A stretch of DNA of 64,000 nucleotides from Candidatus Bathyarchaeota archaeon (GCA_963826715.1 CAWGYA010000008.1:928001-992000), one strand, 5' to 3'. Counted from the stretch's first letter, positions 1-38,672 are shown. Notes: a model not told the origin generated them from the letters alone. Numbers and translations are program-made.

Positions 1-404
1 CTTCTAAACTTAATCAAAATAAGGTCAAAATGGTTTGGGGTAAAGATTTCTTGCCTCAAATGAGTTTGACAGGTCTTGTTTAAACCCCGGTCCCAATTTG
101 AACACTGATAGACTTGGTTCCAATCATCAGAATATAATGAAGTTTGTAAGTTTACCCTTTTTTAGTTTTTATATCTCGCAAAATTGACACTTTCAAATAA
201 ATTATAGACAAAGGCAGAGTATGAATTAACAATAACAATAAATGAATCAATTCTCCAATCGAAATCAAGGTTGAAATTATCTTAAAGACCAATTAACTGA
301 TATTAATTTTCGTTAGTGTCTGATTTAATTAATAACCGCTAAGTCTTTATAATAAGTTAGATAATTAACACCACGTATTGAGGTACGGTTCGGGTTTGCT
401 GGAG

Positions 405-1030
405 ATGGCAGAGAAAAAAGTTCTGAAACATGGTATACTCATAGCTATCGAAGGCATAGACGGCGCTGGAAAAACTACCCAATCCCATATGCTAACAGAA
501 AAACTTAATGAAGAGGGGTATTCTGCTATTTTTTCTCCATGAACCGACCAATGGTCAATGGGGACAAAAGATTCAAAGAATTAGCAAAGAATGAGCGACA
601 CTGAATACCTGCAGAGGAAGAATTAGATCTCTTCTACAAAGACCGCATTGAAGACGTCGAAAAAAATATAAACCCTAACATTAAGGAGAAAAAAAATTAT
701 AGTAATAGATATAGGTACTATTATTCAAACATAACATATCAAGGCATAAGAGGGGTAAACCCAGAATAAGTTGAAAGGATAAATGAAAAAATAGCTCCAA
801 AAACCGCACCTTGTTTTAATTCTTGACATTCCTCCTCAAGAATCATCAAGACGGATCGTTGCTTCTAGAAAGGACGGGCCAAACCATTTTGAGCGAACCG
901 ACTATTTAGAAAAAGTTCGTAACTTGTTACTGTACAGCATTTTCGTGACAGAGATAATGTCAAAATCATAAATGGTGATTCGGCAACCATTCTGCACAAG
1001 AAGTTTTTGATTCTTTGTGGTTCTTGGTAA
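405..1030 (+). pseudogene. tmk: Thymidylate kinase, disrupted by several frameshifts and stops (end approximate)
   Basis: Manual translation: MAEKKVLKHGILIAIEGIDGAGKTTQ (P-loop), then in shifted frames HEPTNG, RYYYSNITYQG, PHLVLILDIP and NHFERTDYLEKVR. Not in the ORF track. Confidence 0.85.
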
Positions 1031-1327
1031 AACCAATAGTGCATGAGGCTGAGGAAACTTAGCGGTGGGCAAGGAAGAACTTGAAAGGCAAATCGCAAAA
1101 GCAGCAGAATCTCAAAGTTCAGGTTCATTGGAGATTAAAAGATTGAAAGAAATTATATGCTTAAATTCCTTTGCACCAAAGGTAAAGATAAATGCGAACC
1201 AGTTTATTGCACCTTTCAAATAACAAATACATGCCCTTTTCTTAGACAAATGGCGTTTTCTCGCAAAGAAATATTCTTTTCATGGATAATTTCAAATGTC
1301 AATAGGTCAATTTCACGGTAACATTTC

Positions 1328-2159
1328 TTAACTCGCTTCAGAGAATTTTATTCCGTACTCCCAAATTAGATTGGCCATATACTTTCCAGATTATATTAGA
1401 TTAATTTTGTTTAATGAACCTATTTTCTCTATAGTTATGTAACCATTTTTGTATCGAGTTTATATAGAATGGACTTGTTTAGATTAATTCAGTTCTTTTG
1501 CTGTATTCTTCGCCTCTCCTCTTTTGATCCAACTGTTTTTTCATCCTGGAAAAGCTCAATTTTTTTGGAAATAAGCAGACGTCAAAATTTACATCAGTAT
1601 TCATTGGTTTGCCTTTAAGAGGAAATGTTTGTTAAGACAATCTTTCCTGGTTCATAAGGGTAGTTTGATTTGAAAGTTCTCAAGCAACATTCCGTCAGGT
1701 TCAACGCAAATACTTATGCCATGTTGTTGTCTTTCTTCGTCATTTCGCGAATATCGATTTGCCCCGACATAGTAGACTTTTTGCGTTATGTGCCATTGCT
1801 GCGAGAGTGGCTACGACTGAAGCCAATCGTTCACCTGCAGACATGTTAACATATGCCAAGACTTATTTGGATTTTTCTTTCAATACCTAGACTAGAAAGG
1901 CTTATTCATTAGCTGTTTAATATCAAATAGGTTGACTTCTTGGACAATGACTTCTATTTTCTTCATTGTCAATTTCTTTTGACTTCGTTTAAGCAACGGA
2001 CTTGCTCCATATTCTCTGCTTTGAAATTTAGGTTCGGAGGTGGCAATCTACTAAGTAAACACGATTAGCGGAGAATTTTTCAAACATTATGACAGCTCTG
2101 TCAATTTCAAAACCCAATAGAATTATATGTACATGCTCTTCAAATTTCAAAACTTTCAT
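1328..2159 (-). pseudogene. DUF6293/HFX_2341-family regulator (CARF/Csa3-like N-domain plus C-terminal wHTH), frameshifted
   Basis: Fragments across frames: MKVLKFEEHVHIILLGFEIDRAV, SANRVYLV, AYVNMSAGERLASVVATLAAMAHNAK, VYYVGANRYS, and wHTH-like NGYITIEKIGSLNKINLI*SGKYMA. Confidence 0.75.
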
Positions 2160-2165
2160 CAACGT

Positions 2166-2188
2166 TTAAACATCTTAACCATGTTTAA
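2166..2188. promoter_or_regulatory. Candidate operator (8-bp inverted repeat) in the divergent promoter region
   Basis: TTAAACAT-N7-ATGTTTAA just upstream of the DUF6293 start. A TATA-like CTTATAAA lies near 2234-2241. Confidence 0.45.
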
Positions 2189-2260
2189 TGATAATTAAAC
2201 TTATTTAGTTAAACAACATTTTCTATCTTCAACCTTATAAAGACTTTGGAAGTTAGAAAA

Positions 2261-2684
2261 ATGTGCCCGAAAAACATCGAGGTTGAATTGACCGACCGCG
2301 CAGTAAATCGTGTGAGGGAATGTGGTTGCGACCCACTTGAAATAATTCACTACCTTTATTCTGGTGAGATTGCAAGTTTCTGAGAACTTTCAAGGGTTTG
2401 AAATTTTAGTACCATTCAAAGGAAGATTAACTGGCACATTTGATAAAGGCATATTTGTTGCCGAATCCTTTTTGTCGCTTATCCATCGTGGCAAGTATTA
2501 CAGTTATCATAGTGAATTTTCGAGAAACCAGTTTTTTGTAATAGTCTCTCTTGTTAGAAGAAGTGGATTAAGAAGAATTGTGGTTTCTTGTACTCGTAAA
2601 GTAGAAATATCATTGTCTGAGTTCGGTTTGACGGAATCTGGGAAACCTTCCATTATCCCAATAAGTAGGTACACCGGGGAGTGA
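2261..2684 (+). pseudogene. Hypothetical protein, probably frameshifted near 2375
   Basis: ATG at 2261 about 25 nt after a TATA-like box gives MCPKNIEVELTDRAVNRVRECGCDPLEIIHYL..., which stops at about 2383. The ORF 2364-2684 continues in another frame. Confidence 0.4.
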
Positions 2685-3067
2685 CAATTTTGAACTTAGG
2701 TATCATTTTCACAAAACGCAACTTCTTATTGATTGGTCTCTTAATCACGATAATAAGGGCTGCTGCCGCCTATATTAATTGGCCTGGTTTTTTATCTAAA
2801 ATTAATCCAGACGAAAAGATAGATTTGGCTAATGTCACTTATCCACAAGCCGCATATAGAAGCCAGAATTTGCCAATCTCGATTAACATTATGAATAATG
2901 GCAATTTCGGAAAAGATGTTATGGTCGAAGTTCTTTCATCAAATAGTGATAGAATTATCAATAATACTGGTATTTCTAGTGGGGGGAGCGCAAATCTTTT
3001 GGTTAATTTACCAGTTAAGAGTTGCGGTAACCAGTCTTTCAAAGTCAATGTCTATTGGAAGGCGTAG
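2681..3067 (+). CDS. Membrane-anchored hypothetical protein with a CARDB/Ig-like beta segment, probably truncated
   Basis: N-terminal hydrophobic helix, then an Asn-rich beta-type pattern (INIMNNGN...GISSGGSANLLVNLPV). Confidence 0.45.
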   Translation: MTILNLGIIFTKRNFLLIGLLITIIRAAAAYINWPGFLSKINPDEKIDLANVTYPQAAYRSQNLPISINIMNNGNFGKDVMVEVLSSNSDRIINNTGISSGGSANLLVNLPVKSCGNQSFKVNVYWKA

Positions 3068-3097
3068 GAGATATTGACCGATTTGGAAAGTGATCAT

Positions 3098-4012
3098 TTG
3101 CAAACCGCAACTCTGGAAGGAAACCGTTTTTTCATACCTATGGTGCCCCCTCAAATAAAACCTGAAACACTTTTGGCTGTATCGCTTCATACATCTTGGA
3201 TTGGAATTAACCTGTTCCAACTTAAACATTCAAGCTTTTATGAGAAAGCGAAAAGTAAAGGTGTCAGAGACGCCTTTGGAATCAATGATAAAATAAAAAT
3301 ATTCTTGACAACAATTAATGACGACAACTACCTTGTAAATTACTTCAATAAATCTAGTTGGTTTGAAGAATTAAAATCAGACTTGAATGGTTTTAGTGCG
3401 GACATGGTTATGGGACCTGATTGGTTTAGTTACAGAGAGGACTCACCAGAACTCAGAAATCGAAACATAAAAAAAGCAATTGATCTGAACTTAATGTTTA
3501 CATATCAAGAGAATATAATACCAACAATTCGAGGAAATTACTCCCAAGAAATTAAGCGTTTTATAAAACCTTTCAAAGAAATAGGAAAAAATTTGTTTGT
3601 TTTTACTGGCAGAGAATATCTAATTAATCTTGGTGATAGGAAGAGATCAGAATTTGAACTTCTTTCTCTCACATCCAATATCGTTAGAAATGAAAAAGTA
3701 AAATTAATTGTAACTGGCTGTAGCAGTCCAAGGCAACAAGAAAATTTACCTGATGTTTTTGGGTTTTCAGGTCTGGGATGGTTAATCAACGCTAAGAGAA
3801 GAATGTTAATTTCAGGCAAGACTTACCGATGGCTTTCATCACCTATATTTTCTTGCGCAGATCCGGATTGCTGCAATTCAATGAACAAATCTGAATTGGC
3901 GCAATCAAAAAATGACTCGATTCGTGCAATTCATAATTTGAAAGCAATTATTGCTAGACTGAACACGGCAAAACATATGCAACAATCTTGTTTGGGGGAT
4001 TTTGATGGGTAA
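3098..4012 (+). CDS. TGT-fold / DUF4417-like protein (putative nucleic-acid base-exchange or modification enzyme); ORF open from 3074
   Basis: MGPDWFSYREDSP..RNRN..IIPTIRG resembles the DUF4417 motif PDFSxYxDxP..N..VIPT. The C-terminal C-x4-CC...AIHNL resembles the TGT Zn site/HNL motif. AGTGAT SD-like sequence precedes TTG 3098. Confidence 0.5.
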   Translation: MQTATLEGNRFFIPMVPPQIKPETLLAVSLHTSWIGINLFQLKHSSFYEKAKSKGVRDAFGINDKIKIFLTTINDDNYLVNYFNKSSWFEELKSDLNGFSADMVMGPDWFSYREDSPELRNRNIKKAIDLNLMFTYQENIIPTIRGNYSQEIKRFIKPFKEIGKNLFVFTGREYLINLGDRKRSEFELLSLTSNIVRNEKVKLIVTGCSSPRQQENLPDVFGFSGLGWLINAKRRMLISGKTYRWLSSPIFSCADPDCCNSMNKSELAQSKNDSIRAIHNLKAIIARLNTAKHMQQSCLGDFDG

Positions 4013-4532
4013 CAAAAGCCGCTCAAAACATTATAATCATAAATCTGGTTATGGTGCTCAAGGAACATTTGCCCAAGTGCAATTTCCTCACATGATGCCT
4101 AGATTAAGTCGAACCGATGTTGACTTATTGCTCCCAGTTTTAAAAGAGGTTGGTAAAGTTATTTGCCCACCTGCAGCCATTCCAATAGAAATTTTATACC
4201 AGCTTTATACACATTCAGATGTGATAACAGAAGTAGGTTCTGCAATTAATAGAGGCGATTACAAGGGGGCAGTTATTGCTGCAGGATACCAAATAGTAAA
4301 AGATGTGGTTGGCACAACATTAAGTTCTAGTGCAAATCAATCAGTCGAAAAAGTTGCTTCAAGCGCAGGTGAGATAACTGGCAATGCATTTAAGGATGAA
4401 CAATCGAAAGAGCTTGCGAAAAAAGTTACTGAAGCCTCCGTAAAAGGAGGTGTAGAAGGGATTCAAGACAAAATAATAGATAAAACAATTGATTCCATAA
4501 AGGGATCGATAGAAGGTGAAAGAAGTGAGTAA
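4002..4532 (+). CDS. Hypothetical helical Gly/Ala-rich protein
   Basis: Intact 176-aa ORF overlapping the upstream stop (translational coupling). Confidence 0.65.
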   Translation: MMGNKSRSKHYNHKSGYGAQGTFAQVQFPHMMPRLSRTDVDLLLPVLKEVGKVICPPAAIPIEILYQLYTHSDVITEVGSAINRGDYKGAVIAAGYQIVKDVVGTTLSSSANQSVEKVASSAGEITGNAFKDEQSKELAKKVTEASVKGGVEGIQDKIIDKTIDSIKGSIEGERSE

Positions 4533-4812
4533 TCAAGCTAAGATTAAACTTATCAAGGATACTGTGATTAAGTCGATTTTATCACAAACTTCCGATAACC
4601 TTGCGAAAAACAGTGTAAGCGAGCAGAAAACTCAGGCTTTATTACGAATAACTGAACTGAAACTTGAGAGAATATTAGACAATTTTGACCAAGCTGACAT
4701 TCTACCTAAAAAGTTCTTATCTCAAGAAGAATTTGAAAGTCATTTACTTACTCTAATTGACTTATCCAAAGAAAGGTTAGTTGAAGACGTAAACCTCGAT
4801 AAGAAACATTAG
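4525..4812 (+). CDS. Hypothetical small helical protein
   Basis: Intact ORF (4516 or 4525 start, AGGTGA SD before GTG 4525) overlapping the previous gene. Confidence 0.6.
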   Translation: MSNQAKIKLIKDTVIKSILSQTSDNLAKNSVSEQKTQALLRITELKLERILDNFDQADILPKKFLSQEEFESHLLTLIDLSKERLVEDVNLDKKH

Positions 4813-5066
4813 CGGATATTGTTCTTGAGATTTGGAGAAAAGATGTTGAAAAAATTAATAGTTTCTTTTAAATAATCTTTGAACGTCAATTGAAAATATT
4901 GAATCATCAAAAAAGTTGCGCTTTTTTTAGTTATCATATTTTCTATGGCCTTCAGAACATAAGTAAAAGGAGTAGTGAGGTTTGTTTAAAAATTTGTTTT
5001 ACTTGTGCAAACAGTTTAAGAAAAGGACTTTCGGTATTGCTTATTTTTACACCAGACGTGTTGTAG

Positions 5067-5186
5067 TCGTTTTGGTATTTCGCCAGAGTTGCACACTCAG
5101 AACAAGAAACTTGCCAATTAATAGAAGCCGGCTTTGAATTCGTATGCGATTTTGGTGTTAACAAGGTTTTCAGAAAACGCAAGTGA
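5067..5186 (+). pseudogene. C-terminal remnant of an archaeal tyrosine integrase
   Basis: YFARVAHSEQETCQLIEAGFEFVCDFGVNKVFRKRK* matches the C-terminal tail (LIEAGFEYVC...FRKRK) typical of Bathyarchaeia/Nitrososphaeria integrases. In-frame stop at 5064; catalytic domain absent. Confidence 0.75.
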
Positions 5187-5233
5187 AATTTGGTGTAGAA
5201 AGTAAACCAAAAAAAATGGAAGGGGATTATTCG

Positions 5234-5257
5234 TAGCGGGCGGGAAGGGATTTGAAC
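5234..5257 (-). other. tRNA 3'-end fragment (att-like; T-loop, T-stem 3' strand, acceptor strand, G73; Arg/Lys-like)
   Basis: Minus strand GTTCAAAT-CCCTT-CCCGCCC-G-CTA. No matching 5' half (GGGCGGG...) nearby. Confidence 0.7.
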
Positions 5258-5259
5258 AA

Positions 5260-5288
5260 AGGACAGCGTGCCCTCAGGCATCTGTCCT
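5260..5288. repeat. GC-rich hairpin abutting the tRNA fragment
   Basis: AGGACAG-cg-TGCC-ctca-GGCA-t-CTGTCCT. Confidence 0.6.
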
Positions 5289-5402
5289 AATCCATCATTG
5301 GTAAATGAAGGATAGCGCTTTTCAAAGGATTGGAGATTATTCTGTATGTGGTTGATTGAGGCGTTATTCCGGAGCCAATTGGACCTAAAATATATTCGTT
5401 AG

Positions 5403-6367
5403 TTACCCAATTTCCACAGTTGTACCTCGATAAGCCATTGTGACCTTTTGAAACAGTTTTACAATGTCTAATGAGCAGAAAAGCGCTTTTGTTAGGTACT
5501 CGTGCTGGTAAATCATCATCTGCGCCTTCACGGGCAAATCGATCTGTGGTGGCTCAAAGAATCGGGCAACTGAATCTACTGGTTCCCCTTCAAGTTGGAT
5601 ATCTTCTTCGCGCAGCCCCGTCTTTTTAGCAATATAGGAAAGGTATGTGCCCTTCCAATCAAGCATCATAACTTCGCAGAGATTATGTCTATAGCTAAGG
5701 CATCGTTGCCCGTTAGAATAAGCCCCATGTTTACTGGTTTGCCCTTGGTTGGTCCGTTGCCCTCTATTCCCGTGCGCGCATCCATAATGGTTAGATTGGG
5801 CTTAAAAAGTGTGTAGAGGAGATAGAACACCTCGGGCAGATATGGGTGCAGATAGATTCGGCGGTTGCTGGGGATACAACCGAATAGGTTCTTAATCGCG
5901 CCGCTGTAAGCCATAAACTCATGCGTTTTCATCAATGGTAAATCAACGACAGCGTCAGCGTCAAGGATGGTTTTGGGCAGAAACAGACGCTTCACCGATG
6001 TGCCATTGTGGAATTTGACTTCGACGATTTTGTCCTCGCTGAGGTTAATGGCAGTTCCACCCGCTGCCTCTACCGCTTCCTTCATGCCTGTCTTGTCAAA
6101 TGCATCCCAGCAAGGATAGTTGATGCCGTTGGATTCGCCCACTACCACTTCGCTGTTGCCATCGCGGAGCAAACCGACGAGTTCCCTCATCAGAGCTGGG
6201 CTAGTGACAACACCGGGCAAGTATTTAGGGTGGCTGAGGTTGGGTTTTATGTAGATACATTTTTTGCCTCGGAGTCCTGAATTAGCGACGGCTTCTTTGA
6301 GGATGCTGCTTATGTCCTTTGATGAACGGAAGATTTTTACGGTTTTCTGCTCAGGTATCATTTCCAT
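5403..6367 (-). CDS. DUF362 Fe-S protein, split by a 1-nt frameshift near 5670 (sequencing error or pseudogene)
   Basis: Motifs YIKPN, VGES, LPLMKTH, SGAIKNLFGCIP and EGNGP. ORFs 5666-6367 and 5403-5669 join as ...IDIISAK/MMLDW. Confidence 0.8.
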
Positions 6368-8083: not shown

Positions 8084-8719
8084 TTAGGGCTCGTTTTTTT
8101 GCATAATATGCTTGGCTATCTCCAAGTCCTCCATGGTGTTCACGTTGAGAACAACTTCGCTTTCCTCAGTGATTAATGCAGCCGTTTCCACTTTGCCTTC
8201 GCCCAGAACCTTTGCTCCGTTTATGACGTTGATGCCTGAAACTGCGTACCACACACCTCGATACTCGTCGGTACTGGAAATCGACAATCCCAAGCTTAGT
8301 CGCTTCTTGATGGGCACAAATACTGCTAGAAAGTCTTTGCCGCAAACCTCAAACTCACCCACAATCCTATCCAAAACCGCGCCGGTAATCCCGGGAACGT
8401 CAGAAGGCATCGTTAGTACTGGACCCATCCAACCCAGTTTAGACACAGCCTGTTTTAAATCATCATGGTAACCTTTCGCATCAGTATGAATGAATTTCCA
8501 GCCCATGTTGCGGCAGTGGTTTTCAGTTTTAGGCGTATTTGTGCTTGTTATGATGTAGAACTCGGAAACCTTATTGGAAGACAAAACGGCCTCAGCTACC
8601 CAATCCAGTAGTGGTTTACCCAAAAACGGCAACATCGGTTTCTCTGTACGCGCCCCCATTCTGCTGCCTTTACCACCAGCCATAATCAAAGCAGGAACTA
8701 TCAAATTGCCCATCCCCAA
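8084..8719 (-). CDS. cobY: CobY-like NTP transferase (adenosylcobinamide-phosphate guanylyltransferase), copy A
   Basis: MAGGKGSRM..EKPML, TPKT, GYHDDL, GINVI, NVNTxEDL; directly downstream of a cobS-like gene. Confidence 0.75.
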   Translation of the reverse strand: MGMGNLIVPALIMAGGKGSRMGARTEKPMLPFLGKPLLDWVAEAVLSSNKVSEFYIITSTNTPKTENHCRNMGWKFIHTDAKGYHDDLKQAVSKLGWMGPVLTMPSDVPGITGAVLDRIVGEFEVCGKDFLAVFVPIKKRLSLGLSISSTDEYRGVWYAVSGINVINGAKVLGEGKVETAALITEESEVVLNVNTMEDLEIAKHIMQKNEP

Positions 8720-9534
8720 AGCACCAAAGCAAACAGAACCAGCGTCACCATCCTCGCTACCTCATTGGTGGCTCCAATCATGTCACCTGAAACTCCGCCG
8801 AATACAACGTTGGAAACTTTATTCATCACCAACGCCACTGGAAAGCTAACAAACACCAAGCAAACCGCAAAAAAACCCAAAATCGTGTTTCCTGTTATAT
8901 AAAACATAAAAAACGCAATTATGACCGAAAATATGTATGCGGCTGTGTTGAGGGGTTTTTTGGCTTTTGCAAGAAAAATCGAGCCTAAACCCTTATGTGA
9001 AGGTTTTCCAACCCAGACAATCGTCACCATAGAGAGCTTCGCGGTAACTTCAGCCAAAATAATAGCTGCAAACCCAAACGTTGGATTAACCAAACACAAA
9101 CCCACAACAGCCAGCATCTCCACACCCATGGCCAAAACCGCGCCTGCATAGCTAACTGTCCAAGCATGCGCCTTCATTTTACGGTCATGCACGTTGCGTA
9201 AGCCAATTGCGTTGCCGAGGTCAATTAAGCCATCAAAATGCTGCAAGCCCGTGAGCGCCAGAAGAAGCGCAATCGTCATAGCTGCTGGAATCGCTGATGC
9301 AAGAACCGTAGGTAAAGAAACATAGACATTGACTATGTTAAACAGAAAACCCACGATTGCACTTGATAACACAAAATATAAACCGCCAAGCAATCCGATG
9401 AAACCCCCAATTAACGGAAAAAGCCACATATTCTCAGCAGTTGTAAAAATAAAATCCTCTTTTCCTCCAACTGGGATAATGGTTAGGAAAGACAGCAAAT
9501 CCCTAAAAGTTTTTATAGCTTTCATCGGCGACAT
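8701..9534 (-). CDS. cobS: CobS-like membrane protein, diverged copy A
   Basis: FLTIIP, FPLIG, TGLQHFDGLID and FGGVSGDMIGATNE. Two conserved Asp positions are altered. Confidence 0.8.
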   Translation of the reverse strand: MSPMKAIKTFRDLLSFLTIIPVGGKEDFIFTTAENMWLFPLIGGFIGLLGGLYFVLSSAIVGFLFNIVNVYVSLPTVLASAIPAAMTIALLLALTGLQHFDGLIDLGNAIGLRNVHDRKMKAHAWTVSYAGAVLAMGVEMLAVVGLCLVNPTFGFAAIILAEVTAKLSMVTIVWVGKPSHKGLGSIFLAKAKKPLNTAAYIFSVIIAFFMFYITGNTILGFFAVCLVFVSFPVALVMNKVSNVVFGGVSGDMIGATNEVARMVTLVLFALVLWGWAI

Positions 9535-9584: not shown

Positions 9585-10520
9585 ATGGCTGACCTTAAAA
9601 ACAAAAATGTAATGGTGACTGGAGGAGCAGGCTTCATAGGATATCACCTCTGCAGTAAACTCTCGCAGTTAACAAATAACTTGTCGATTTATGATAATCT
9701 CTCTAGTGGCAAAATCGAAAATGTTAAAGATGTTCCAGTCGCCCATTTCATTCAAGGAGATATCTTAGACCAGAAAACTCTCAATGGTACCCCAAAACAG
9801 GATTTGATCTATCACTTAGCCGCGCAAGTTGTGGTACCATATTCCATGGAGAATCCACTAATTGATTTCGAAACAAACGCCAAAGGAACAGTGTGTGTCC
9901 TCGAGAAAGCACGTAAAGACGACGCCAAAGTTGTGTTTGCGTCAAGCGCCGCAGTTTATGGCAACCCGACACAGCTTCCAACAGCCGAAGAATACGGCTT
10001 TCACCCCTTCTCATGCTACGGCTTATCCAAAGTTGTGGGCGAAGAATACTGTCAGATGTATCGAGAACAATACGGTCTCGACATTGTGGTCGCGCGGTTC
10101 GCTAACGTCTATGGGTTGCGCTGTCATGGGGTTATTCACGACTTCCTTGAAAAACTTGCCCGAGATCCAAACAAATTGGAAATCATTGGCACAGGACAAC
10201 AAGCACGGGATCTGGTACATGTTTCAGATGTGGTTGATTTGTTGATTACAGTAGGTTCTTTAGAGTCAACTAACGGTAAAACCTATAATGTAGGTTACGG
10301 CAAAACAACCAAAATTATCGACTTAGCCAAAATGATGCTAAAAATACTTAACCTGCAAAACAAAACAATCGTCACAACTACTGGTGTGTCTTGGCAAGGA
10401 GACATTCAGACAATATGGTTCGATAACAGTAAAGCAAAGCGAGAACTAGGTTGGAACCCTAAAGTAACTTTGGAAGAGAGCATAAAAGAAGTCATTGCTG
10501 ACAGGAATCTGCCAGCATGA
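9585..10520 (+). CDS. NAD-dependent NDP-sugar epimerase/dehydratase (GalE-like SDR)
   Basis: VTGGAGFIG, HLAA, SSAAVYG, YGLSK, RFANVYG. Confidence 0.92.
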   Translation: MADLKNKNVMVTGGAGFIGYHLCSKLSQLTNNLSIYDNLSSGKIENVKDVPVAHFIQGDILDQKTLNGTPKQDLIYHLAAQVVVPYSMENPLIDFETNAKGTVCVLEKARKDDAKVVFASSAAVYGNPTQLPTAEEYGFHPFSCYGLSKVVGEEYCQMYREQYGLDIVVARFANVYGLRCHGVIHDFLEKLARDPNKLEIIGTGQQARDLVHVSDVVDLLITVGSLESTNGKTYNVGYGKTTKIIDLAKMMLKILNLQNKTIVTTTGVSWQGDIQTIWFDNSKAKRELGWNPKVTLEESIKEVIADRNLPA

Positions 10521-13424: not shown

Positions 13425-13925
13425 TCAAACAACCTCTATGTCTAATATACAATTGTTATATCCTGTAAACTCCAACGATCCATCCCCGTTAACAAGATAC
13501 AACTCGAAAACAACCGTATAACTACCCACAGCATTTTCTGTGAGTGTGATCCTATGTTGTTGGTGTGATCCGTCGACCAAACTCAGATCATAGGTGTCCA
13601 CGGGGGTTATGTCTACGGGGGACCCTTTGTAAACCTGGGTGATCTTGGTTTGAACCTGATAGTTATGGCTGCTGGTACCGCCCATATGGTTCTCAACTGT
13701 AATATAGACGCTAAAGGTGCTGTTTTGGTTGTGAACTAGTGTGTGGGGGTAGTCTACGGCTTGATTGTTTGCGTCTAAAATTGAGAGGGTATTGTAAGGT
13801 TCGGGTTGGGGTCTATAAATCAGGTAGTATCCCGCAATAGTTGAAGCTACAATAATAAGAGCAATGAAAACGGCGACTGCATAGCCGACTTCATCGCTTA
13901 AACCGATTCGCTTTCCAATGTGCAT
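13425..13925 (-). CDS. DUF1616-like membrane-anchored protein (start uncertain)
   Basis: One TM helix, then EPYNTLSIL..DYP..VYITVENHMG..VVFELY. Confidence 0.7.
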   Translation of the reverse strand: MHIGKRIGLSDEVGYAVAVFIALIIVASTIAGYYLIYRPQPEPYNTLSILDANNQAVDYPHTLVHNQNSTFSVYITVENHMGGTSSHNYQVQTKITQVYKGSPVDITPVDTYDLSLVDGSHQQHRITLTENAVGSYTVVFELYLVNGDGSLEFTGYNNCILDIEVV

Positions 13926-14628
13926 AACAGACCCTAAACGTTTTAGCATCCAAAAACCCCTTAAATATAGTGGTAAAAATCCTGATCCCCGACTGAAAAG
14001 GTTTAAGTTTGGTTTTACCGTATGTTCGAGGCTTGTAAGTTGTGGGTATTTCCGCCATATTATACCCTTCTCTTGCGAATTGTATGAGCATCTCTGTAGC
14101 AAATGGCATATCTGTTTCTTTGAACTTTACACTATCATATTTTTTGCGGTCGATTGCTCGAAAACCAGATTGTGTGTCACTGAGGAATTGACTATAGAAA
14201 AAGTCGTAGGTGAAAGTGATAGCTTTGTTACCAATAAAGTTGAGAAACCCCATAGCCTTGTTAGGATCATACATGCGAGTCGCTAAAACCAGGTCCGCGT
14301 CTTTCTCGATTAAACGGCTGACGAGGCGATCGATGTGTTTGAACTCGTAAGTACCATCAGCATCAACCATGATAAGTATGTTTCCCTTTGCGTTTTTCAT
14401 ACCTGTCCTTAGTGCAATTCCATATCCGCGCCTCGGTTCAATAATTAAACGACATTTACCAGTTTGGTTAACCAATTCTATGGTTCCATCTGTTGAGTTG
14501 CTGTCCACGATGATGATTTCTTTGGGGTAACTCACATGCCTATCGATAGTGTTTATAGCTTCCAGTATGGTACCCGCTTCGTTTAAGGTTGGAATCACGA
14601 CCGAGACCATTTCAACTTTTGATGTCAT
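13891..14628 (-). CDS. GT2 glycosyltransferase (DPM1/polyprenol-phosphate sugar synthase-like)
   Basis: VVIPTLNEA, IVDSNSTDGT, GYGIA, DADG, DTQSGFRA, YKPRTYGKTKL. Confidence 0.9.
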   Translation of the reverse strand: MTSKVEMVSVVIPTLNEAGTILEAINTIDRHVSYPKEIIIVDSNSTDGTIELVNQTGKCRLIIEPRRGYGIALRTGMKNAKGNILIMVDADGTYEFKHIDRLVSRLIEKDADLVLATRMYDPNKAMGFLNFIGNKAITFTYDFFYSQFLSDTQSGFRAIDRKKYDSVKFKETDMPFATEMLIQFAREGYNMAEIPTTYKPRTYGKTKLKPFQSGIRIFTTIFKGFLDAKTFRVCYAHWKANRFKR

Positions 14629-18580: not shown

Positions 18581-19360
18581 GTGGTACTTCAAAAGTTAAA
18601 GAACCTGCTATCTTTCCTAACAGTTTTCCCAGTCACCATGGACGAGAACCTACTGACTGACTGCGCACGCAATATGTGGGCTTTCCCACTTGTTGGAGCA
18701 TTTTTAGGTTTACTGGCAGGCTTGTTTGGCTGGGTCACAATTCAGTTTTTGCCAAGTATTGTGGTCGGCGGCTTAGTTCTGGGGCTGCTACTTTTGATGA
18801 CTGGCCTACATCATACGGATGGGTTGCTTGATTTTGGAGACGGTATTATGGTGCATGGTACCCCGGCAAAAAAGATAGAAGTCATGCATGATCAACTTAC
18901 AGGTGCAGGAGCAATCGGTTTAGGCCTAATTACTTATCTAACCACAGCTTTTGCTTTTGCCTCGCTAAGTAATAATGTAATTTATTATGGTTTTAGCATG
19001 CCATTGATTTTTCCCGCCGTGTTAGTTGTTGAGATGTCTGCAAAATTGTCAATGGTAGTGGCGGCGTGGGCAGGAAAATCCGTTCATGAAGGGATGAACT
19101 CAGCATTCCTTCAAGTCATGCACGGTAGAGGTGGTAACTGGCGGCTTTTCGCAGCACTTGTGATCTCTTTTGGAATCGCAGTTCTATTGCTTGGATGGGC
19201 GGGTATATTCACTGTTTTGGTCTCTGTAATCACGGGTTTAGTTATGGTTGCTATTGCACATAGAAACTTTGGTGGAGTCACCGGCGATGTTTTCGGAGCC
19301 ACAAACGAATTGTCGCGGATGGTCGCCATAATTATGCTTTTGGCGGTGGCACTATGGTAG
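18581..19360 (+). CDS. cobS: Cobalamin synthase CobS, canonical copy B
   Basis: TGLHHTDGLLDFGDG, EVMHDQLTG and FGGVTGDVFGATNE. Confidence 0.92.
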   Translation: MVLQKLKNLLSFLTVFPVTMDENLLTDCARNMWAFPLVGAFLGLLAGLFGWVTIQFLPSIVVGGLVLGLLLLMTGLHHTDGLLDFGDGIMVHGTPAKKIEVMHDQLTGAGAIGLGLITYLTTAFAFASLSNNVIYYGFSMPLIFPAVLVVEMSAKLSMVVAAWAGKSVHEGMNSAFLQVMHGRGGNWRLFAALVISFGIAVLLLGWAGIFTVLVSVITGLVMVAIAHRNFGGVTGDVFGATNELSRMVAIIMLLAVALW

Positions 19361-19968
19361 TTGCGCTGGTTATGGCAGGTGGCAGAGGGACACGGATGAA
19401 GTTGCCCATGGAGAAACCGCTCATACCTGTCTGTGGAAAACCTGTAATTGAATATGTGCTCGCCGCGTTGAGCACTTCCCAAAAAATTGACGACATAATC
19501 GTTGCCACAACTATATCCACACCAAAAACCACCACGCTCATGAAGCAGCTTGGTGTAAAAGTAATAGAAACGCCAGGTATAGATTATGTTTCAGATATGG
19601 GTTTCACGGTTCAGACGCAAAAACTAGGCGTTTTCTTGGCGATAGCTGCTGATTTACCTTTGGTGAAGCCTGAAATGATTGATGCTGTTTTGGAACGTTA
19701 TGAGCGCTGTGGCAAACCCGCTTTGACAGTTGCTGTGCCGTTGGAAACCAAGTCTAAATTGGGCATGTGCATCGAGTACAGTTTTAAAGCTGACGATAAA
19801 GAAGTGGTGCCCGTGGGAATAAACGTTATCGACGGAAGTAAACGCTATGGCGATGAATGGCTTGACCAAGACATATACCTCATGCACGATGAGGAACTAG
19901 CGGTTAACATCAACACGGTCGCGGAGCTTAAGTTAGCTGAAAAGATGATGTCAAAATCAAGCTGCTAA
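19354..19968 (+). CDS. cobY: CobY NTP transferase, copy B
   Basis: MAGGRGTRM..EKPL, TPKT, YVSDM, ADLP, GINVI, NINT. Confidence 0.85.
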   Translation: MVVALVMAGGRGTRMKLPMEKPLIPVCGKPVIEYVLAALSTSQKIDDIIVATTISTPKTTTLMKQLGVKVIETPGIDYVSDMGFTVQTQKLGVFLAIAADLPLVKPEMIDAVLERYERCGKPALTVAVPLETKSKLGMCIEYSFKADDKEVVPVGINVIDGSKRYGDEWLDQDIYLMHDEELAVNINTVAELKLAEKMMSKSSC

Positions 19969-36085: not shown

Positions 36086-36751
36086 ATGAGCTGTGTAGGA
36101 CCAATTCTAGCAACACTAAAGGAAACGTTGCCTATGCCTACCCTCGTTAAAGATAACCAAGATCCATTTGAGACGCTAATTGTAACAATTATTTCGCAGA
36201 ACACAGCAGACATTAACACCGAACGTGCTTTTGGCAACCTGAAGGGCCGCTTTGAAATCTCGCCCTTAGGTTTGGCATATGTGGGGTTAGGTGAAATCGA
36301 AGAATGCCTTCATATTGGTGGACTTTACAGGAGTAAGGCTAAAGTCATCCAGAATGTGTCTAAAATTGTCTTGAAGAAATTCGGAGGAGACCTTAAATCC
36401 ATCCTTAACCTGCCTTTAGAAGAGGCACGGAAAACCTTCATGTCAATGCCTGGAATAGGTCCTAAAACCGCAGATGTTGTGCTGCTATTTGCTGCTGGTA
36501 AATCCACATTACCGGTGGATACGCATGTTAACAGAGTTTCCAAACGCATGGGACTTGCACCAGCAAACGGCGATTATGAGGTGGTGAGGCAGAGTCTGCA
36601 GTCTCTTTTTGAACCAAAAGATTTCCTATCAGTACATCTATTACTGATTGCTCTTGGAAGGAAGGTCTGTAAAGCCCAAAAGCCTCTTTGTTGTATCTGC
36701 CCAGTAAAAGCCTATTGCCCCTCGAAGGTTTCGGAGGAAAATTATGAGTAA
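36086..36751 (+). CDS. nth: Endonuclease III
   Basis: DPFETLI.TIISQNT, HhH PGIGPKTA, VDTH, C-x6-C-x2-C-x5-C. Confidence 0.93.
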   Translation: MSCVGPILATLKETLPMPTLVKDNQDPFETLIVTIISQNTADINTERAFGNLKGRFEISPLGLAYVGLGEIEECLHIGGLYRSKAKVIQNVSKIVLKKFGGDLKSILNLPLEEARKTFMSMPGIGPKTADVVLLFAAGKSTLPVDTHVNRVSKRMGLAPANGDYEVVRQSLQSLFEPKDFLSVHLLLIALGRKVCKAQKPLCCICPVKAYCPSKVSEENYE

Positions 36752-38672
36752 ACTTCCTGTTGAAGTTGCTGAGTACTTTCCTTACGGAAGTGTGCGTCCG
36801 CACCAAGATGACTTCATAGCAACCGTTAACCAGGCTGTCAACGATCGCAAGAGTGTACTCATTGAGGGCACTAACGGGTTAGGTAAAACCATATCCTCTC
36901 TCTCCGCTGTGTTGCCGATTGCCGTTAAGAAAAACCTAAAAATTCTTTACGTCGCTCGTACTCACCGGCAGCATGACCGCGTTATCGAGGAGCTTCGGGC
37001 TGTGTATAAGCGTCGCCCAGTTACAGGCGTCTCAATCCGAGGCAGAAACGAGATGTGCCTTAATGTTTTTGCTGCCAATGGAGCATTCGATTCAAAATCT
37101 TTAATGGAAGTCTGCGAGCTTCTCAAAGCCAAAGGTCGGTGTCCTTTTTACGTCAACGTGGAAGAACGTACCTACGATTATCTGCAACTTCAGAAGCAAA
37201 TCGCCAGCCGCCCCTACATGGGCTCAGAAATCCTCAAGGTATGTACAAAAAAAGAACTCTGTGCTTACGAACTGGTGAAGGGCGCAGTTTCTGATGCAAG
37301 GGTTATTGCACTGAGCTACCTTTACATGTTCGATCCCCAAATTCGTACACCTTTTCTCAAAAACCTGGAAACAGACCTCTCAAAAATTATTCTAGTGGTG
37401 GATGAGGCGCATAATCTGCCTGAAACAGCTATAGACATTTCCAGCAACCAACTGACACTATTCGTGCTAAAGGCAGCCGAGATGGAAGCGGAAAAATTCG
37501 GCTACAAAGACATTGAGCAATTCACACACTTCTTCCGTCTCGAAGTGGATAAGCTCACAGATAGAATCAGCAAAGAAGAAATCATCCCGCCTAGCCACAT
37601 TATCGAAATCGTGGAGAAGCAGGGCAATATCTCAAAGCCCCGTGAGTTCTTTGAACATATTCATGAAGCAGGTATGGCAATCAAAAAGGCATTGCTTGCT
37701 GAGGGCAAAAATCCCCGTTCTTACGTCAACTCACTTGGAGAGTTTCTACAAAAATGGTTAGATACTATTGGCGATGACGCCTACATTAATGTGGCTAGCA
37801 AATACTTCAATAAAGACAATAACAAAACGGCTAAACTTGAAATTGTAGCGCTTGATCCCGCTAAAATCACTGAACCCGTTTTTTCTGCAACCTACGCTAA
37901 CGTGATTATGTCGGGAACGCTACAGCCGCTTGAAGCTTTCGCACGAATCACTAAGCTGCCTCCAAATACAGTGCATTTCCTAGCATCCTCCCCGTTTCCA
38001 CAGGAGCACGTTTTCTCGGCGGTATGTATGGGTGTGACTACCTCGATGGAGAAGCGAACGCCAAAGATGTACCAAAACATGATTGATCGCATAAACGAAG
38101 TTGTCAATAGTACCCCCACTAATACCGGCATCTTCGCTGCGTCTTTTCAAGTTCTAAACTCCCTTCTTTCCGAGGGTTTAGAGAATCAACTACTAAAACC
38201 ATTGTTTTACGAAAAAAGTGGTATGACTTCCAAATCCAACGAGAAACTGGTGGGGGAGTTCAAAGCTTGTGGTGACCGGGGCGGAGCAGTTTTTTTGGGT
38301 GTTCAGGGCGGACGGACTTCGGAGGGTGTAGATTTTCCCGGAAACCAAATGAATTCAGTGGTAGTTGTCGGGGTGCCATATGCAGAGCCAACTCCAAGGG
38401 TGAAAGCACAAATTGAATATTACGAGAAACATTTTCCGGGGCATGGCCGAGAATATGGATACATTTTGCCCGCTATGAAAAAAGCCTCACAGGCGGCCGG
38501 CAGACCTATTCGGACGCTTGACGATAAAGGAGCCATTGTCTTTTTGGATTATCGTTTCGGCAGCGCTTACTGCAAAAGCTTTTTGCCTTCATGGATAACC
38601 ACCGGCATGAAAACTATAATAGATAAACCTGGCCTTTTGGCAGAGGACGTTCGTAGGTTCTTTACTGGTTAA
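36744..38672 (+). CDS. xpd: XPD/Rad3 Fe-S DNA helicase
   Basis: GLGKT, ARTH.Q, Fe-S cysteines, DEAH, SGTL, SEGVDF, QAAGRPIR. Confidence 0.93.
   Translation: MSKLPVEVAEYFPYGSVRPHQDDFIATVNQAVNDRKSVLIEGTNGLGKTISSLSAVLPIAVKKNLKILYVARTHRQHDRVIEELRAVYKRRPVTGVSIRGRNEMCLNVFAANGAFDSKSLMEVCELLKAKGRCPFYVNVEERTYDYLQLQKQIASRPYMGSEILKVCTKKELCAYELVKGAVSDARVIALSYLYMFDPQIRTPFLKNLETDLSKIILVVDEAHNLPETAIDISSNQLTLFVLKAAEMEAEKFGYKDIEQFTHFFRLEVDKLTDRISKEEIIPPSHIIEIVEKQGNISKPREFFEHIHEAGMAIKKALLAEGKNPRSYVNSLGEFLQKWLDTIGDDAYINVASKYFNKDNNKTAKLEIVALDPAKITEPVFSATYANVIMSGTLQPLEAFARITKLPPNTVHFLASSPFPQEHVFSAVCMGVTTSMEKRTPKMYQNMIDRINEVVNSTPTNTGIFAASFQVLNSLLSEGLENQLLKPLFYEKSGMTSKSNEKLVGEFKACGDRGGAVFLGVQGGRTSEGVDFPGNQMNSVVVVGVPYAEPTPRVKAQIEYYEKHFPGHGREYGYILPAMKKASQAAGRPIRTLDDKGAIVFLDYRFGSAYCKSFLPSWITTGMKTIIDKPGLLAEDVRRFFTG

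Follow-up and report, generated by a model that had tools for sequence, protein, structure and literature searches.

A rare, mobile three-gene cassette of archaea encoding a divergent protein of the tRNA-guanine transglycosylase superfamily

The window analyzed here is a stretch of 64,000 nt from Candidatus Bathyarchaeota archaeon (GCA_963826715.1 CAWGYA010000008.1:928001-992000), and coordinates are positions within it; those of a second locus are given together with the name L001, which denotes the Bathyarchaeota metagenome-assembled genome carrying that locus. Near the left end of the window, three open reading frames (ORFs) form a conserved, rare and horizontally moving three-gene cassette that recurs in archaea. 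The first of them encodes a predicted barrel protein of the tRNA-guanine transglycosylase (TGT) superfamily:

3098–4012, plus strand: ORF1, predicted TGT-superfamily TIM barrel, 304 residues (alternative start at 3074, 312 residues)
4005–4532, plus strand: ORF2, partner protein, 175 residues (alternative start at 4002, 176 residues)
4525–4812, plus strand: ORF3, 95 residues (alternative start at 4516, 98 residues)

The three ORFs are intact, overlap one another by 8–17 nt and represent real genes, as had been proposed in the initial annotation of this DNA. ORF1 is likely to start with TTG at 3098, which fits the 304-residue database form (P0001), while a further TTG at 3074 provides an alternative; residue numbers of ORF1 follow the 312-residue form throughout. 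The ATG of ORF2 (4005) is located inside ATGGGTAA, which also holds the stop codon of ORF1, and is preceded by GGGGGA 7–12 nt upstream. ORF3 starts with GTG (4525), overlapping the stop codon of ORF2, with GAAGGTGA positioned 8–15 nt upstream.

Sequence models place ORF1 only loosely. No match to Pfam or NCBIfam was obtained, PF01702 and DUF6610 of Pfam not being reached even at E ≤ 1, and the label 'DUF4417-like' given initially had to be dropped, since no Pfam family is found at E ≤ 0.1. Among sequence models, the family is detected solely by the PADLOC model PDLC00912 ('TGT'), which matches ORF1 with an E-value of 1.1e-8 over profile positions 62–241 of 280 and is matched by 19 of 34 family members. 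PADLOC matched a single protein to this one model and recognized no system. Among 11 distant relatives one is matched by PF01702 (E 0.02, 14.4 bits versus a cut-off of 26.3), and searches of PDB chain sequences with ORF1 and with the family profile returned chance-level rows only. The family comprises 25 clusters at 90% identity including that of the window, with the other 24 at 42–55% identity to ORF1. It is rare: out of 1,835,955,588 proteins, 17 representatives match, 11 of which reach E ≤ 1e-30, and all 17 are unnamed or annotated as 'hypothetical'.

The fold of ORF1 was addressed by structure prediction. An AlphaFold2 (AF2) model calculated from the 25-sequence alignment reached a predicted local distance difference test score (pLDDT) of 87.5 and a predicted TM-score (pTM) of 0.85. 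The model displays eight barrel strands, a hairpin (residues 244–253) and C-terminal helices. In a Foldseek comparison with the PDB, all 50 matches listed are TGT or ArcTGT structures with query TM-scores (TMq) of 0.64–0.75; the top match is ArcTGT 1iq8_A (E 7.4e-11, TMq 0.75, 15% identity), followed by bacterial TGTs with a TMq of 0.64–0.72. Those matches among viral models (BFVD) that bear a name are annotated as TGT or queuine ribosyltransferase. Because the AF2 model is confident and the listed Foldseek matches all belong to the TGT family, ORF1 is confirmed, at the level of the predicted structure, as a divergent member of the TGT superfamily with a TGT-type (β/α)8 barrel. The protein is basic (isoelectric point 9.25).

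According to the available text of PMC10164549, three active-site Asp residues are invariant in TGT and DpdA; in DpdA these are D95 (general acid/base), D130 (base binding) and D256 (nucleophile), and base exchange is lost upon mutation of either the general acid/base Asp or the nucleophile. Within the 34-sequence alignment of the ORF1 family (A2), the conserved acidic residues are D84 (34/34), D116 (33/34), D103 (30/34), E181 (29/34) and E159 (28/34). Across residues 189–262, which span strands 7 and 8, no column of this alignment reaches 60% Asp plus Glu. A profile alignment (hhalign) of the ORF1 family with the C-terminal half of a Bathyarchaeota ArcTGT (E 0.0049), read together with the alignment of this ArcTGT to 1iq8, positions S232 opposite the Asp equivalent to D249 of 1iq8, and C261, D263, C266 and H287 opposite residues 279, 281, 284 and 307. 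The order of motifs relative to E. coli TGT and the strand positions of the AF2 model agree with this register. In 1iq8, D249 is the nucleophile, and residues 279, 281, 284 and 307 are the Zn ligands. For D249 this is consistent with the role stated for D256 of DpdA in the accessible part of PMC10164549.

At the nucleophile position, members of the ORF1 family carry Ser, Ala, Val or Thr instead of Asp. The Zn-site-like motif of ORF1 reads C261-x-D263-x-x-C266-C267 ... H287-N-L, so that the second Zn-ligand position of the Cys-x-Cys-x-x-Cys ... His motif of TGT is occupied by Asp, as it is in 24 of 31 sequences. Of the TGT barrel with catalytic Asp and Zn site which the initial annotation had envisaged, the barrel and a Zn-site-like motif were thus recovered, but the nucleophile Asp was not. 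Since no acidic residue is conserved at or near the nucleophile position, canonical base exchange by ORF1 is unlikely, and the DpdA-like base exchange suggested initially is not supported. The ORF1 family appears to have lost the covalent nucleophile, while retaining the fold, part of the base pocket and a motif of Zn type. Because the residue needed for the usual base swapping is missing, the function of ORF1 is probably new.

Two Asp residues of the putative base pocket, D116 and D84, are retained. D116 follows the strand 111–113 within the motif D-M-V-M-G-P-D, co-linear with D-I-V-M-I-F-D of E. coli TGT, and would represent the Asp which binds the base and closes strand 4, as judged by motif and strand register rather than by a significant alignment. 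D84 is located 4–5 residues after strand 3 (75–79), whereas the general acid/base Asp of TGT directly follows the strand. In total, six pairs of co-linear motifs can be traced between ORF1 and E. coli TGT (FFIPMV / FMPVGT; D.VMGPD / DIVMIFD; IPTIRG / FGIIQG; FTGR / AVGGL; VTGCSSP / LMGVGKP; C.D..C...IHNL / CDCYTC...IHNL), two of which were recovered by hhalign. A very-low-stringency hhalign run gave a full-length but unreliable alignment, of which only the two segments agreeing with the other hhalign run were used. The alignment of the ORF1 family with the N-terminal half of ArcTGT (E 0.68) was discarded, its register being in conflict with the strand positions.

ORF2 belongs to no family in Pfam, NCBIfam, PADLOC or PHROGs. 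The first approximately 35 residues are predicted to be disordered and form a basic tail, whereas the remainder is predicted to be helical. A profile search with seven ORF2 sequences yielded 30 clusters. Among 28 full-length homologues, 21 start with Met-Gly at the predicted N-terminus, and Gly occupies the aligned second column in 27, in three of them after an upstream-extended gene call and in three others with the Gly lying 2–7 residues inward. Conservation further extends over a basic G-x-x-R/K-R/K-K-H stretch and an invariant Gln, followed by LPVLKEVGK..PPAAIPIEILYQLY.H ... GDY. For ORF3, no known family was found in Pfam, NCBIfam or PADLOC. In PHROGs, neither the three window proteins nor a 128-residue ORF preceding them found a match, and the ORF2 homologue of L001 found a weak one (E 0.0034). 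Look-alikes of ORF2 and ORF3 in the ESM Atlas (0.87–0.90; unnamed, PT-TG and EF-hand clusters) share few features with the query proteins and were set aside as uninformative.

A pattern search across 185,579 species genomes gave 37 matches, of which one, L001, was confirmed as a second locus. There, all three genes recur with unchanged order and overlapping ends, at identities to the window of 51% for ORF1, 36% for ORF2 (E 3e-23) and 26% for ORF3 (E 9e-10). Gene order was read directly at these two loci, while further linkage between ORF1 and ORF2 is deduced from an identical size of the longest contig. By this measure, 8 of the 24 ORF1 clusters outside the window match an ORF2-family cluster exactly (12950, 117562, 4114, 3712, 3737, 5584, 7148 and 36923 nt); many of the remaining ORF1 contigs are just 1.3–3 kb long. 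Moreover, ORF1 and ORF2 identities correlate over nine pairs (r 0.77), a value reached by 1 of 5000 permutations. With the trio of L001 and these eight ORF1/ORF2 pairs, the alternative that the three genes never co-occur elsewhere, which the initial annotation had left open, fails.

In L001, the trio and its spacers differ in base composition from the surrounding DNA, with a GC content of 0.39–0.44 versus 0.47–0.54 in the flanks and a GC content at third codon positions (GC3) of 0.35–0.47 versus 0.53–0.71. On either side of the trio lies a copy of a direct repeat of about 169 nt with 94% identity between copies (L001 7742–7910 and 10098–10267). The repeat contains a TATA-like CTTATATA near the 3' end. 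A 53-nt copy of the 5' end of nrdR (10053–10105) precedes the right repeat, and the real start of nrdR (10312–10364) is found 47 nt after it. The trio of L001 gives the impression of having been inserted where the promoter region of nrdR is duplicated. The ArcTGT gene of L001 is split into two overlapping ORFs on the minus strand (4140–4919 and 3287–4228), either by an assembly frameshift or genuinely.

In the window, GC amounts to 0.29–0.39 over positions 1–5402 versus 0.435 over 8084–64000, and GC3 to 0.24–0.31 in the trio versus 0.43–0.61 in four host genes. Due to the atypically low GC in both genomes, the repeat-flanked insert of L001 and the unrelated contexts of the two loci, it can be concluded that the trio is a small unit which is transferred among distant archaea and inserts at unrelated sites. 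Translated searches (tblastn) with ORF1 and ORF2 against 50,697 phage records and with ORF1 against 72,556 plasmid records found nothing; a corresponding search of phages with E. coli TGT retrieved mostly bacterial-type tgt genes and was not used.

The cassette of the window is embedded in a low-GC island that contains the following additional features:

369–1060, plus strand: pseudogene of thymidylate kinase (tmk), piecewise match to Pfam PF02223 (Thymidylate_kin); context, outside the cassette
1328–2165, minus strand: pseudogene of a DUF6293/HFX_2341-like (Csa3a-like) regulator, piecewise match to Pfam PF19810
2166–2260, no strand: AT-rich spacer, 95 nt, GC 0.22, with an 8-nt inverted repeat and a TATA-like CTTATAAAG
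2261–2383, plus strand: small ORF without a Pfam or NCBIfam match
2364–2684, plus strand: small ORF in a different frame, overlapping the preceding one by 20 nt, without a Pfam or NCBIfam match
2681–3067, plus strand: 128-residue ORF with a hydrophobic N-terminal segment (maximum hydropathy 1.96 at residue 15)
4813–5402, no strand: end of the island, low in GC (0.36) and devoid of intact genes

Broken neighbors had been described initially for tmk, the regulator and an integrase. For tmk and the regulator this was borne out. Positions 1–30, 56–100 and 117–160 of Thymidylate_kin fall on the separate stop-bounded fragments 369–539, 605–766 and 795–968. Likewise, positions 2–30, 42–72 and 87–112 of HFX_2341_N (PF19810) fall on the fragments 2031–2165, 1895–2047 and 1743–1862 of the minus strand, each below the cut-off of 30 bits. 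With its profile match distributed over three fragments that are bounded by stop codons, the DUF6293 gene is regarded as a pseudogene. For the supposed integrase remnant, in contrast, the best candidate (5067–5186, plus strand) has no match in Pfam, NCBIfam or in tblastn against plasmids and phages. Att-like repeats flanking the trio are absent from the window. The only repeat is a direct repeat of 27 nt with 78% identity (148–174 and 4913–4939), situated to the left of the tmk remnant and just to the right of ORF3, which is too imperfect for an attachment site. Scanning the window for Rfam families and tRNAs yielded no hits.

The difference in intactness between the trio and its neighbors is real. 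A scan of 53 long ORFs at 5.4–64 kb gave ordinary full-length domain matches, among them thermosome, PolB, exosome, proteasome, CDP-archaeol synthase, AglB and an HMPTM zinc ribbon, which argues that the breaks are local and do not reflect a general assembly fault. As far as gene content indicates, the host is an archaeon and probably a methanopterin user. Given at least three breaks per 700–800 bp in tmk and the regulator, an order-of-magnitude argument makes it unlikely that 2.1 kb of coding sequence stayed unbroken by chance. An intact cassette amid such decay would suit a module that is under selection or addictive. A likely exception among the intact downstream ORFs is a DUF362 gene of the minus strand, split at 5666–5669 at the edge of the island: the gene at 5666–6367, which holds the full Pfam domain, continues with a 4-nt overlap into an 88-residue ORF (5403–5669), possibly by a frameshift or as a split gene. 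The 88-residue ORF seems to us to resemble the usual C-terminal continuation of DUF362 proteins.

A divergent promoter with an 8-bp inverted repeat had been placed between the regulator and the trio. The perfect 8-nt repeat exists (TTAAACAT, 2166–2173, and ATGTTTAA, 2181–2188), but it does not exceed chance, as one is present in 244 of 2000 shuffled versions of the 95-nt spacer, and the spacer does not adjoin ORF1, being separated from it by three plus-strand ORFs (2261–2383, 2364–2684 and 2681–3067) that are absent from the initial annotation. The palindrome GTTTAAAC occurs twice versus 2.1 expected occurrences. A scan for sigma-70 promoters and terminators found fewer sites than in shuffled sequence, with a model that is not applicable to archaeal promoters. 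The TATA-like CTTATAAAG lies about 20–27 nt upstream of the ATG at 2261, and the spacer is a possible promoter of the whole string of plus-strand genes. The two ORFs at 2261–2684 possibly represent a single gene disrupted by a frameshift. The following 128-residue ORF, which gave a sub-threshold CARDB match (Pfam, E 0.024), overlaps the preceding stop codon with its start (GTGA) and ends 6 nt before the earliest start of ORF1. With overlapping or nearly abutting ORFs and the TATA-like CTTATAAAG, a single transcript covering 2261–4812 is plausible. Since no counterpart is found beside the trio in L001, the 128-residue ORF is placed outside the conserved core.

Kinship of the DUF6293/HFX_2341 family with CARF/Csa3-type regulators, as stated initially, agrees with the available text of PMC11434293, in which the family is Csa3a-like and acts as a global regulator in Haloferax. 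The idea that this gene confers ligand regulation on the trio is not supported: the gene is a pseudogene, is separated from ORF1 by about 900 bp with three ORFs, and is missing next to the trio in L001.

Comparison of the cassette with known systems revealed partial similarities to several of them. As in TGT and ArcTGT (PF01702), the ORF1 model combines a (β/α)8 barrel with a C-terminal hairpin and a helical subdomain of Zn type. Unlike these enzymes, ORF1 lacks the nucleophile Asp, carries Asp in place of the second Zn Cys, spans just 304 residues without PUA or other C-terminal RNA-binding domains, is encoded together with two small partner proteins and stays below the Pfam cut-off for TGT. 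With DpdA it shares a TGT-superfamily barrel outside tRNA metabolism, which in DpdA often resides on islands or mobile elements, as far as described in the accessible parts of PMC10164549 and PMC10516641. DpdA4 of archaeal viruses corresponds to DUF6610. However, DpdA keeps all three active-site Asp residues, whereas the nucleophile is gone in ORF1. Among the 53 window ORFs scanned there is no match to DpdB, DpdC, QueC/QueD/QueE/FolE, ParB-like or DUF328 proteins, and no Dpd model of PADLOC matches ORF1. Membership of ORF1 in DUF6610 (DpdA4) was ruled out by the Pfam search at E ≤ 1 mentioned above.

In Cap10 of type IV cyclic oligonucleotide-based antiphage signaling systems (CBASS), the base pocket holds Gly2 of CdnD tagged with 7-amido-7-deazaguanine; the tail of CdnD carries the motif M(G/S)G(G/S)GG, and it is the QueC-like Cap9 that attaches the tag (10.1101/2025.04.06.647259). 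There, as in the cassette, a TGT-like protein is encoded beside a partner with a flexible N-terminal tail starting with Met-Gly/Ser, ORF2 likewise starting with Met-Gly and its tail being predicted to be disordered. In contrast to ORF1, which has a Zn-type site and lacks the Asp, Cap10 has no Zn site and possesses a catalytic D248/H226 pair; moreover, the cassette contains neither a CD-NTase nor a QueC-like Cap9 nor an effector, and the tail of ORF2 is basic and not restricted to Gly/Ser as in CdnD. The PADLOC 'TGT' model, which probably stems from type IV CBASS, matches the clade of the window partially and weakly. The distant relative P0040 is a full-length member of this model (E 4.7e-84), with Ala at the nucleophile position (A2); it lacks the Zn-type C-terminal region and a His/Asp pair like that of Cap10, and gave no PDB chain match.

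For TIM-B and the Beta protein of phage P4 (PF14350), which are barrels related to TGT, a restraining action on a neighboring effector is predicted, according to the part of 10.64898/2026.10.19.760177 that was available. As far as described there, they resemble the cassette in having a barrel with a C-terminal hairpin and helix beside small or varied partner genes, organized as a compact mobile module. On the other hand, P4 places the effector first, and neither ORF2 nor ORF3 contains a recognizable toxin domain. ORF1 was rejected as a Beta protein, with no match to PF14350 and an hhalign probability of 0.18% against P4 Beta, while P4 Beta itself matches PF14350 at 4.3e-56. A TGT component is also mentioned in the available text of PMC12839542 for HerA-centered systems related to bacteriophage exclusion (BREX), but none of their partner genes is present at the cassette. 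Because matches to the respective models are absent and the defining nucleophile is lacking, ORF1, although built on the TGT scaffold, is not assigned to TGT, DpdA, Cap10 or TIM-B. No description of the trio was found in the literature by a text search, which is blind to a protein family without a name, and term look-ups gave nothing in the available portions of PMC4158269 and PMC12988326.

The reading tentatively preferred for the cassette is a complex of ORF1, ORF2 and ORF3 that binds a purine-like group and acts in genetic conflict. According to this proposal, ORF1 would not exchange bases through canonical double displacement but would bind a purine or 7-deazapurine-like group, be it free, in nucleic acid or on a protein. 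It would act in a complex with its two translationally coupled and presumably helical partners, the helicity of ORF3 being adopted from the initial annotation. In view of the Gly conserved at its N-terminus and of its basic, presumably flexible tail, ORF2 would be the likeliest partner or substrate to enter the barrel, by analogy to the N-terminus of CdnD in Cap10 or to TIM-B holding an adjacent effector in check. The cassette would then most likely serve as a defence or addiction module in genetic conflict, a role which would account for its intact state amid decaying neighbors; 'defence' in particular is inferred. A more specific version, which makes the cassette a self-contained relative, in archaea, of nucleobase-protein conjugation systems and in which the nucleophile-less barrel captures a purine or 7-deazapurine, or transfers it non-canonically, onto the Gly tail of ORF2, or reads such a mark, and thereby switches a three-protein complex serving as a mobile addiction or antiviral module, is considered quite unlikely.

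Several observations weigh against the proposed complex. No QueC-like (Cap9-type) enzyme, CD-NTase or recognizable effector domain is encoded in the cassette or among the 53 ORFs scanned. The direct gene order was obtained from two loci only, and the genes outside the L001 insert are housekeeping genes (arcTGT, GlmU-like, nrdR, nrdD, nrdG) and do not form a defence island. When folded alone, ORF2 is poorly predicted (pLDDT 42), and in 4 of 28 homologues of ORF2 the conserved Gly is located inward of the called N-terminus or is missing. In ORF1, D84 is out of exact register with the general acid/base Asp of TGT, being 4 residues more distant from the strand, and the residue equivalences as a whole derive from the order of strands and motifs and from a profile alignment of weak significance (E 0.0049). 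In TGTs, the Zn subdomain and the basic character accompany nucleic-acid binding. ORF1 is basic and keeps a Zn-type subdomain which Cap10 has lost, and a nucleic-acid substrate is thus plausible.

One alternative, in the sense of the initial annotation, is that ORF1 is a DpdA-like DNA or RNA transglycosylase which inserts 7-deazaguanine or another base, assisted by two small accessory proteins in a modification- or restriction-type module. Besides the TGT fold, the retained Zn subdomain and the basic protein, the conserved D84 and D116 and the setting on an island fit this explanation, and TGT-like genes modify DNA in bacteria, phages and archaeal viruses, as far as stated in the accessible text of PMC10164549 and PMC10516641. 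It is nevertheless unlikely: Asp or Glu is conserved neither at the nucleophile position nor anywhere across residues 189–262; the Pfam TGT and DUF6610 models are not matched at E ≤ 1, leaving PADLOC 'TGT' and no Dpd model; gene names for preQ0 synthesis, DpdB and DpdC are absent among the 53 window ORFs scanned; and a restriction-type partner is not found.

Alternatively, the cassette could be cargo serving a virus or mobile element, for instance in genome modification or counter-defence, without a role for the host. The GC content, low versus the host in both genomes, the direct repeats of L001, the broken tmk and other debris adjoining the trio and the TGT-like structural matches among viral models (BFVD) would be in line with such an origin. 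However, tblastn of phage and plasmid records was null and PHROGs did not match the window trio, no capsid, replication or confirmed integrase gene adjoins the trio at either locus, and the cassette stayed intact although the surrounding element decayed. Cargo without a host role is hence judged improbable.

The loss of the covalent nucleophile with retention of the base-pocket Asp would suit a third alternative, a hydrolytic N-glycosidase with TGT fold that removes a guanine-like or 7-deazaguanine base from foreign DNA or RNA, with ORF2 and ORF3 as inhibitor or adaptor. Defence glycosylases directed against 7-deazaguanine-modified phages are described, on other folds, in the available part of 10.1101/2025.10.29.685425, and the intact cassette in a decaying island would fit as well. 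Yet this explanation is purely conjectural, no TGT-fold glycosylase being found in the cited literature, and neither a nuclease nor an apurinic/apyrimidinic (AP) lyase partner is present, which makes it very unlikely. Least probable of all is a housekeeping, non-catalytic TGT paralogue partnering ArcTGT or ArcS in the manner of QTRT2, the non-catalytic paralogue of QTRT1 in eukaryotes (10.1101/2025.04.06.647259): the nucleophile-less TGT fold, the kept Zn subdomain and the arcTGT gene about 3 kb away in L001 would agree with it, but not the sparse distribution (17 representatives, one locus among 185,579 species genomes), the atypical GC, the repeat-flanked insertion and the company of two unrelated small proteins.

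TGT-fold proteins were long viewed as tRNA enzymes. Newer roles are DNA modification (DpdA), recognition of a nucleobase-tagged N-terminus in CBASS (Cap10) and possibly the restraint of toxins (TIM-B). To these, the cassette would add a fourth lineage, which is archaeal, has kept the Zn-type subdomain, has lost the nucleophile and is accompanied by two small partners; a TGT-fold protein would here have been recruited into a mobile module of conflict type, its mechanism being inferred. If capture, transfer or reading of a nucleobase at the ORF2 tail by the barrel proved true, TGT-fold control of proteins would extend beyond CBASS and operate without a QueC-like ligase. The cassette also implies that a TGT-like gene on an island should not automatically be annotated as a DNA-modifying enzyme, and with its three compact genes it is experimentally tractable.

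Outside the island, a few additional features of the window were observed. Two paralogous pairs, each consisting of a CobS-family protein and a MobA-like nucleotidyltransferase, are encoded at 8084–9534 and 18581–19968 on opposite strands, about 10 kb apart. On the minus strand, an ORF for a glycosyltransferase of family 2 (GT2; 13891–14628) overlaps a DUF1616-matching ORF (13425–14102) by about 210 nt; the latter match covers profile positions 153–285 only, and both ORFs are maybe a GT2-DUF1616 fusion broken by a frameshift. Finally, the region 36086–38672 contains a gene for an HhH-GPD base-excision glycosylase, immediately followed by an overlapping gene for an XPD/Rad3-type helicase.

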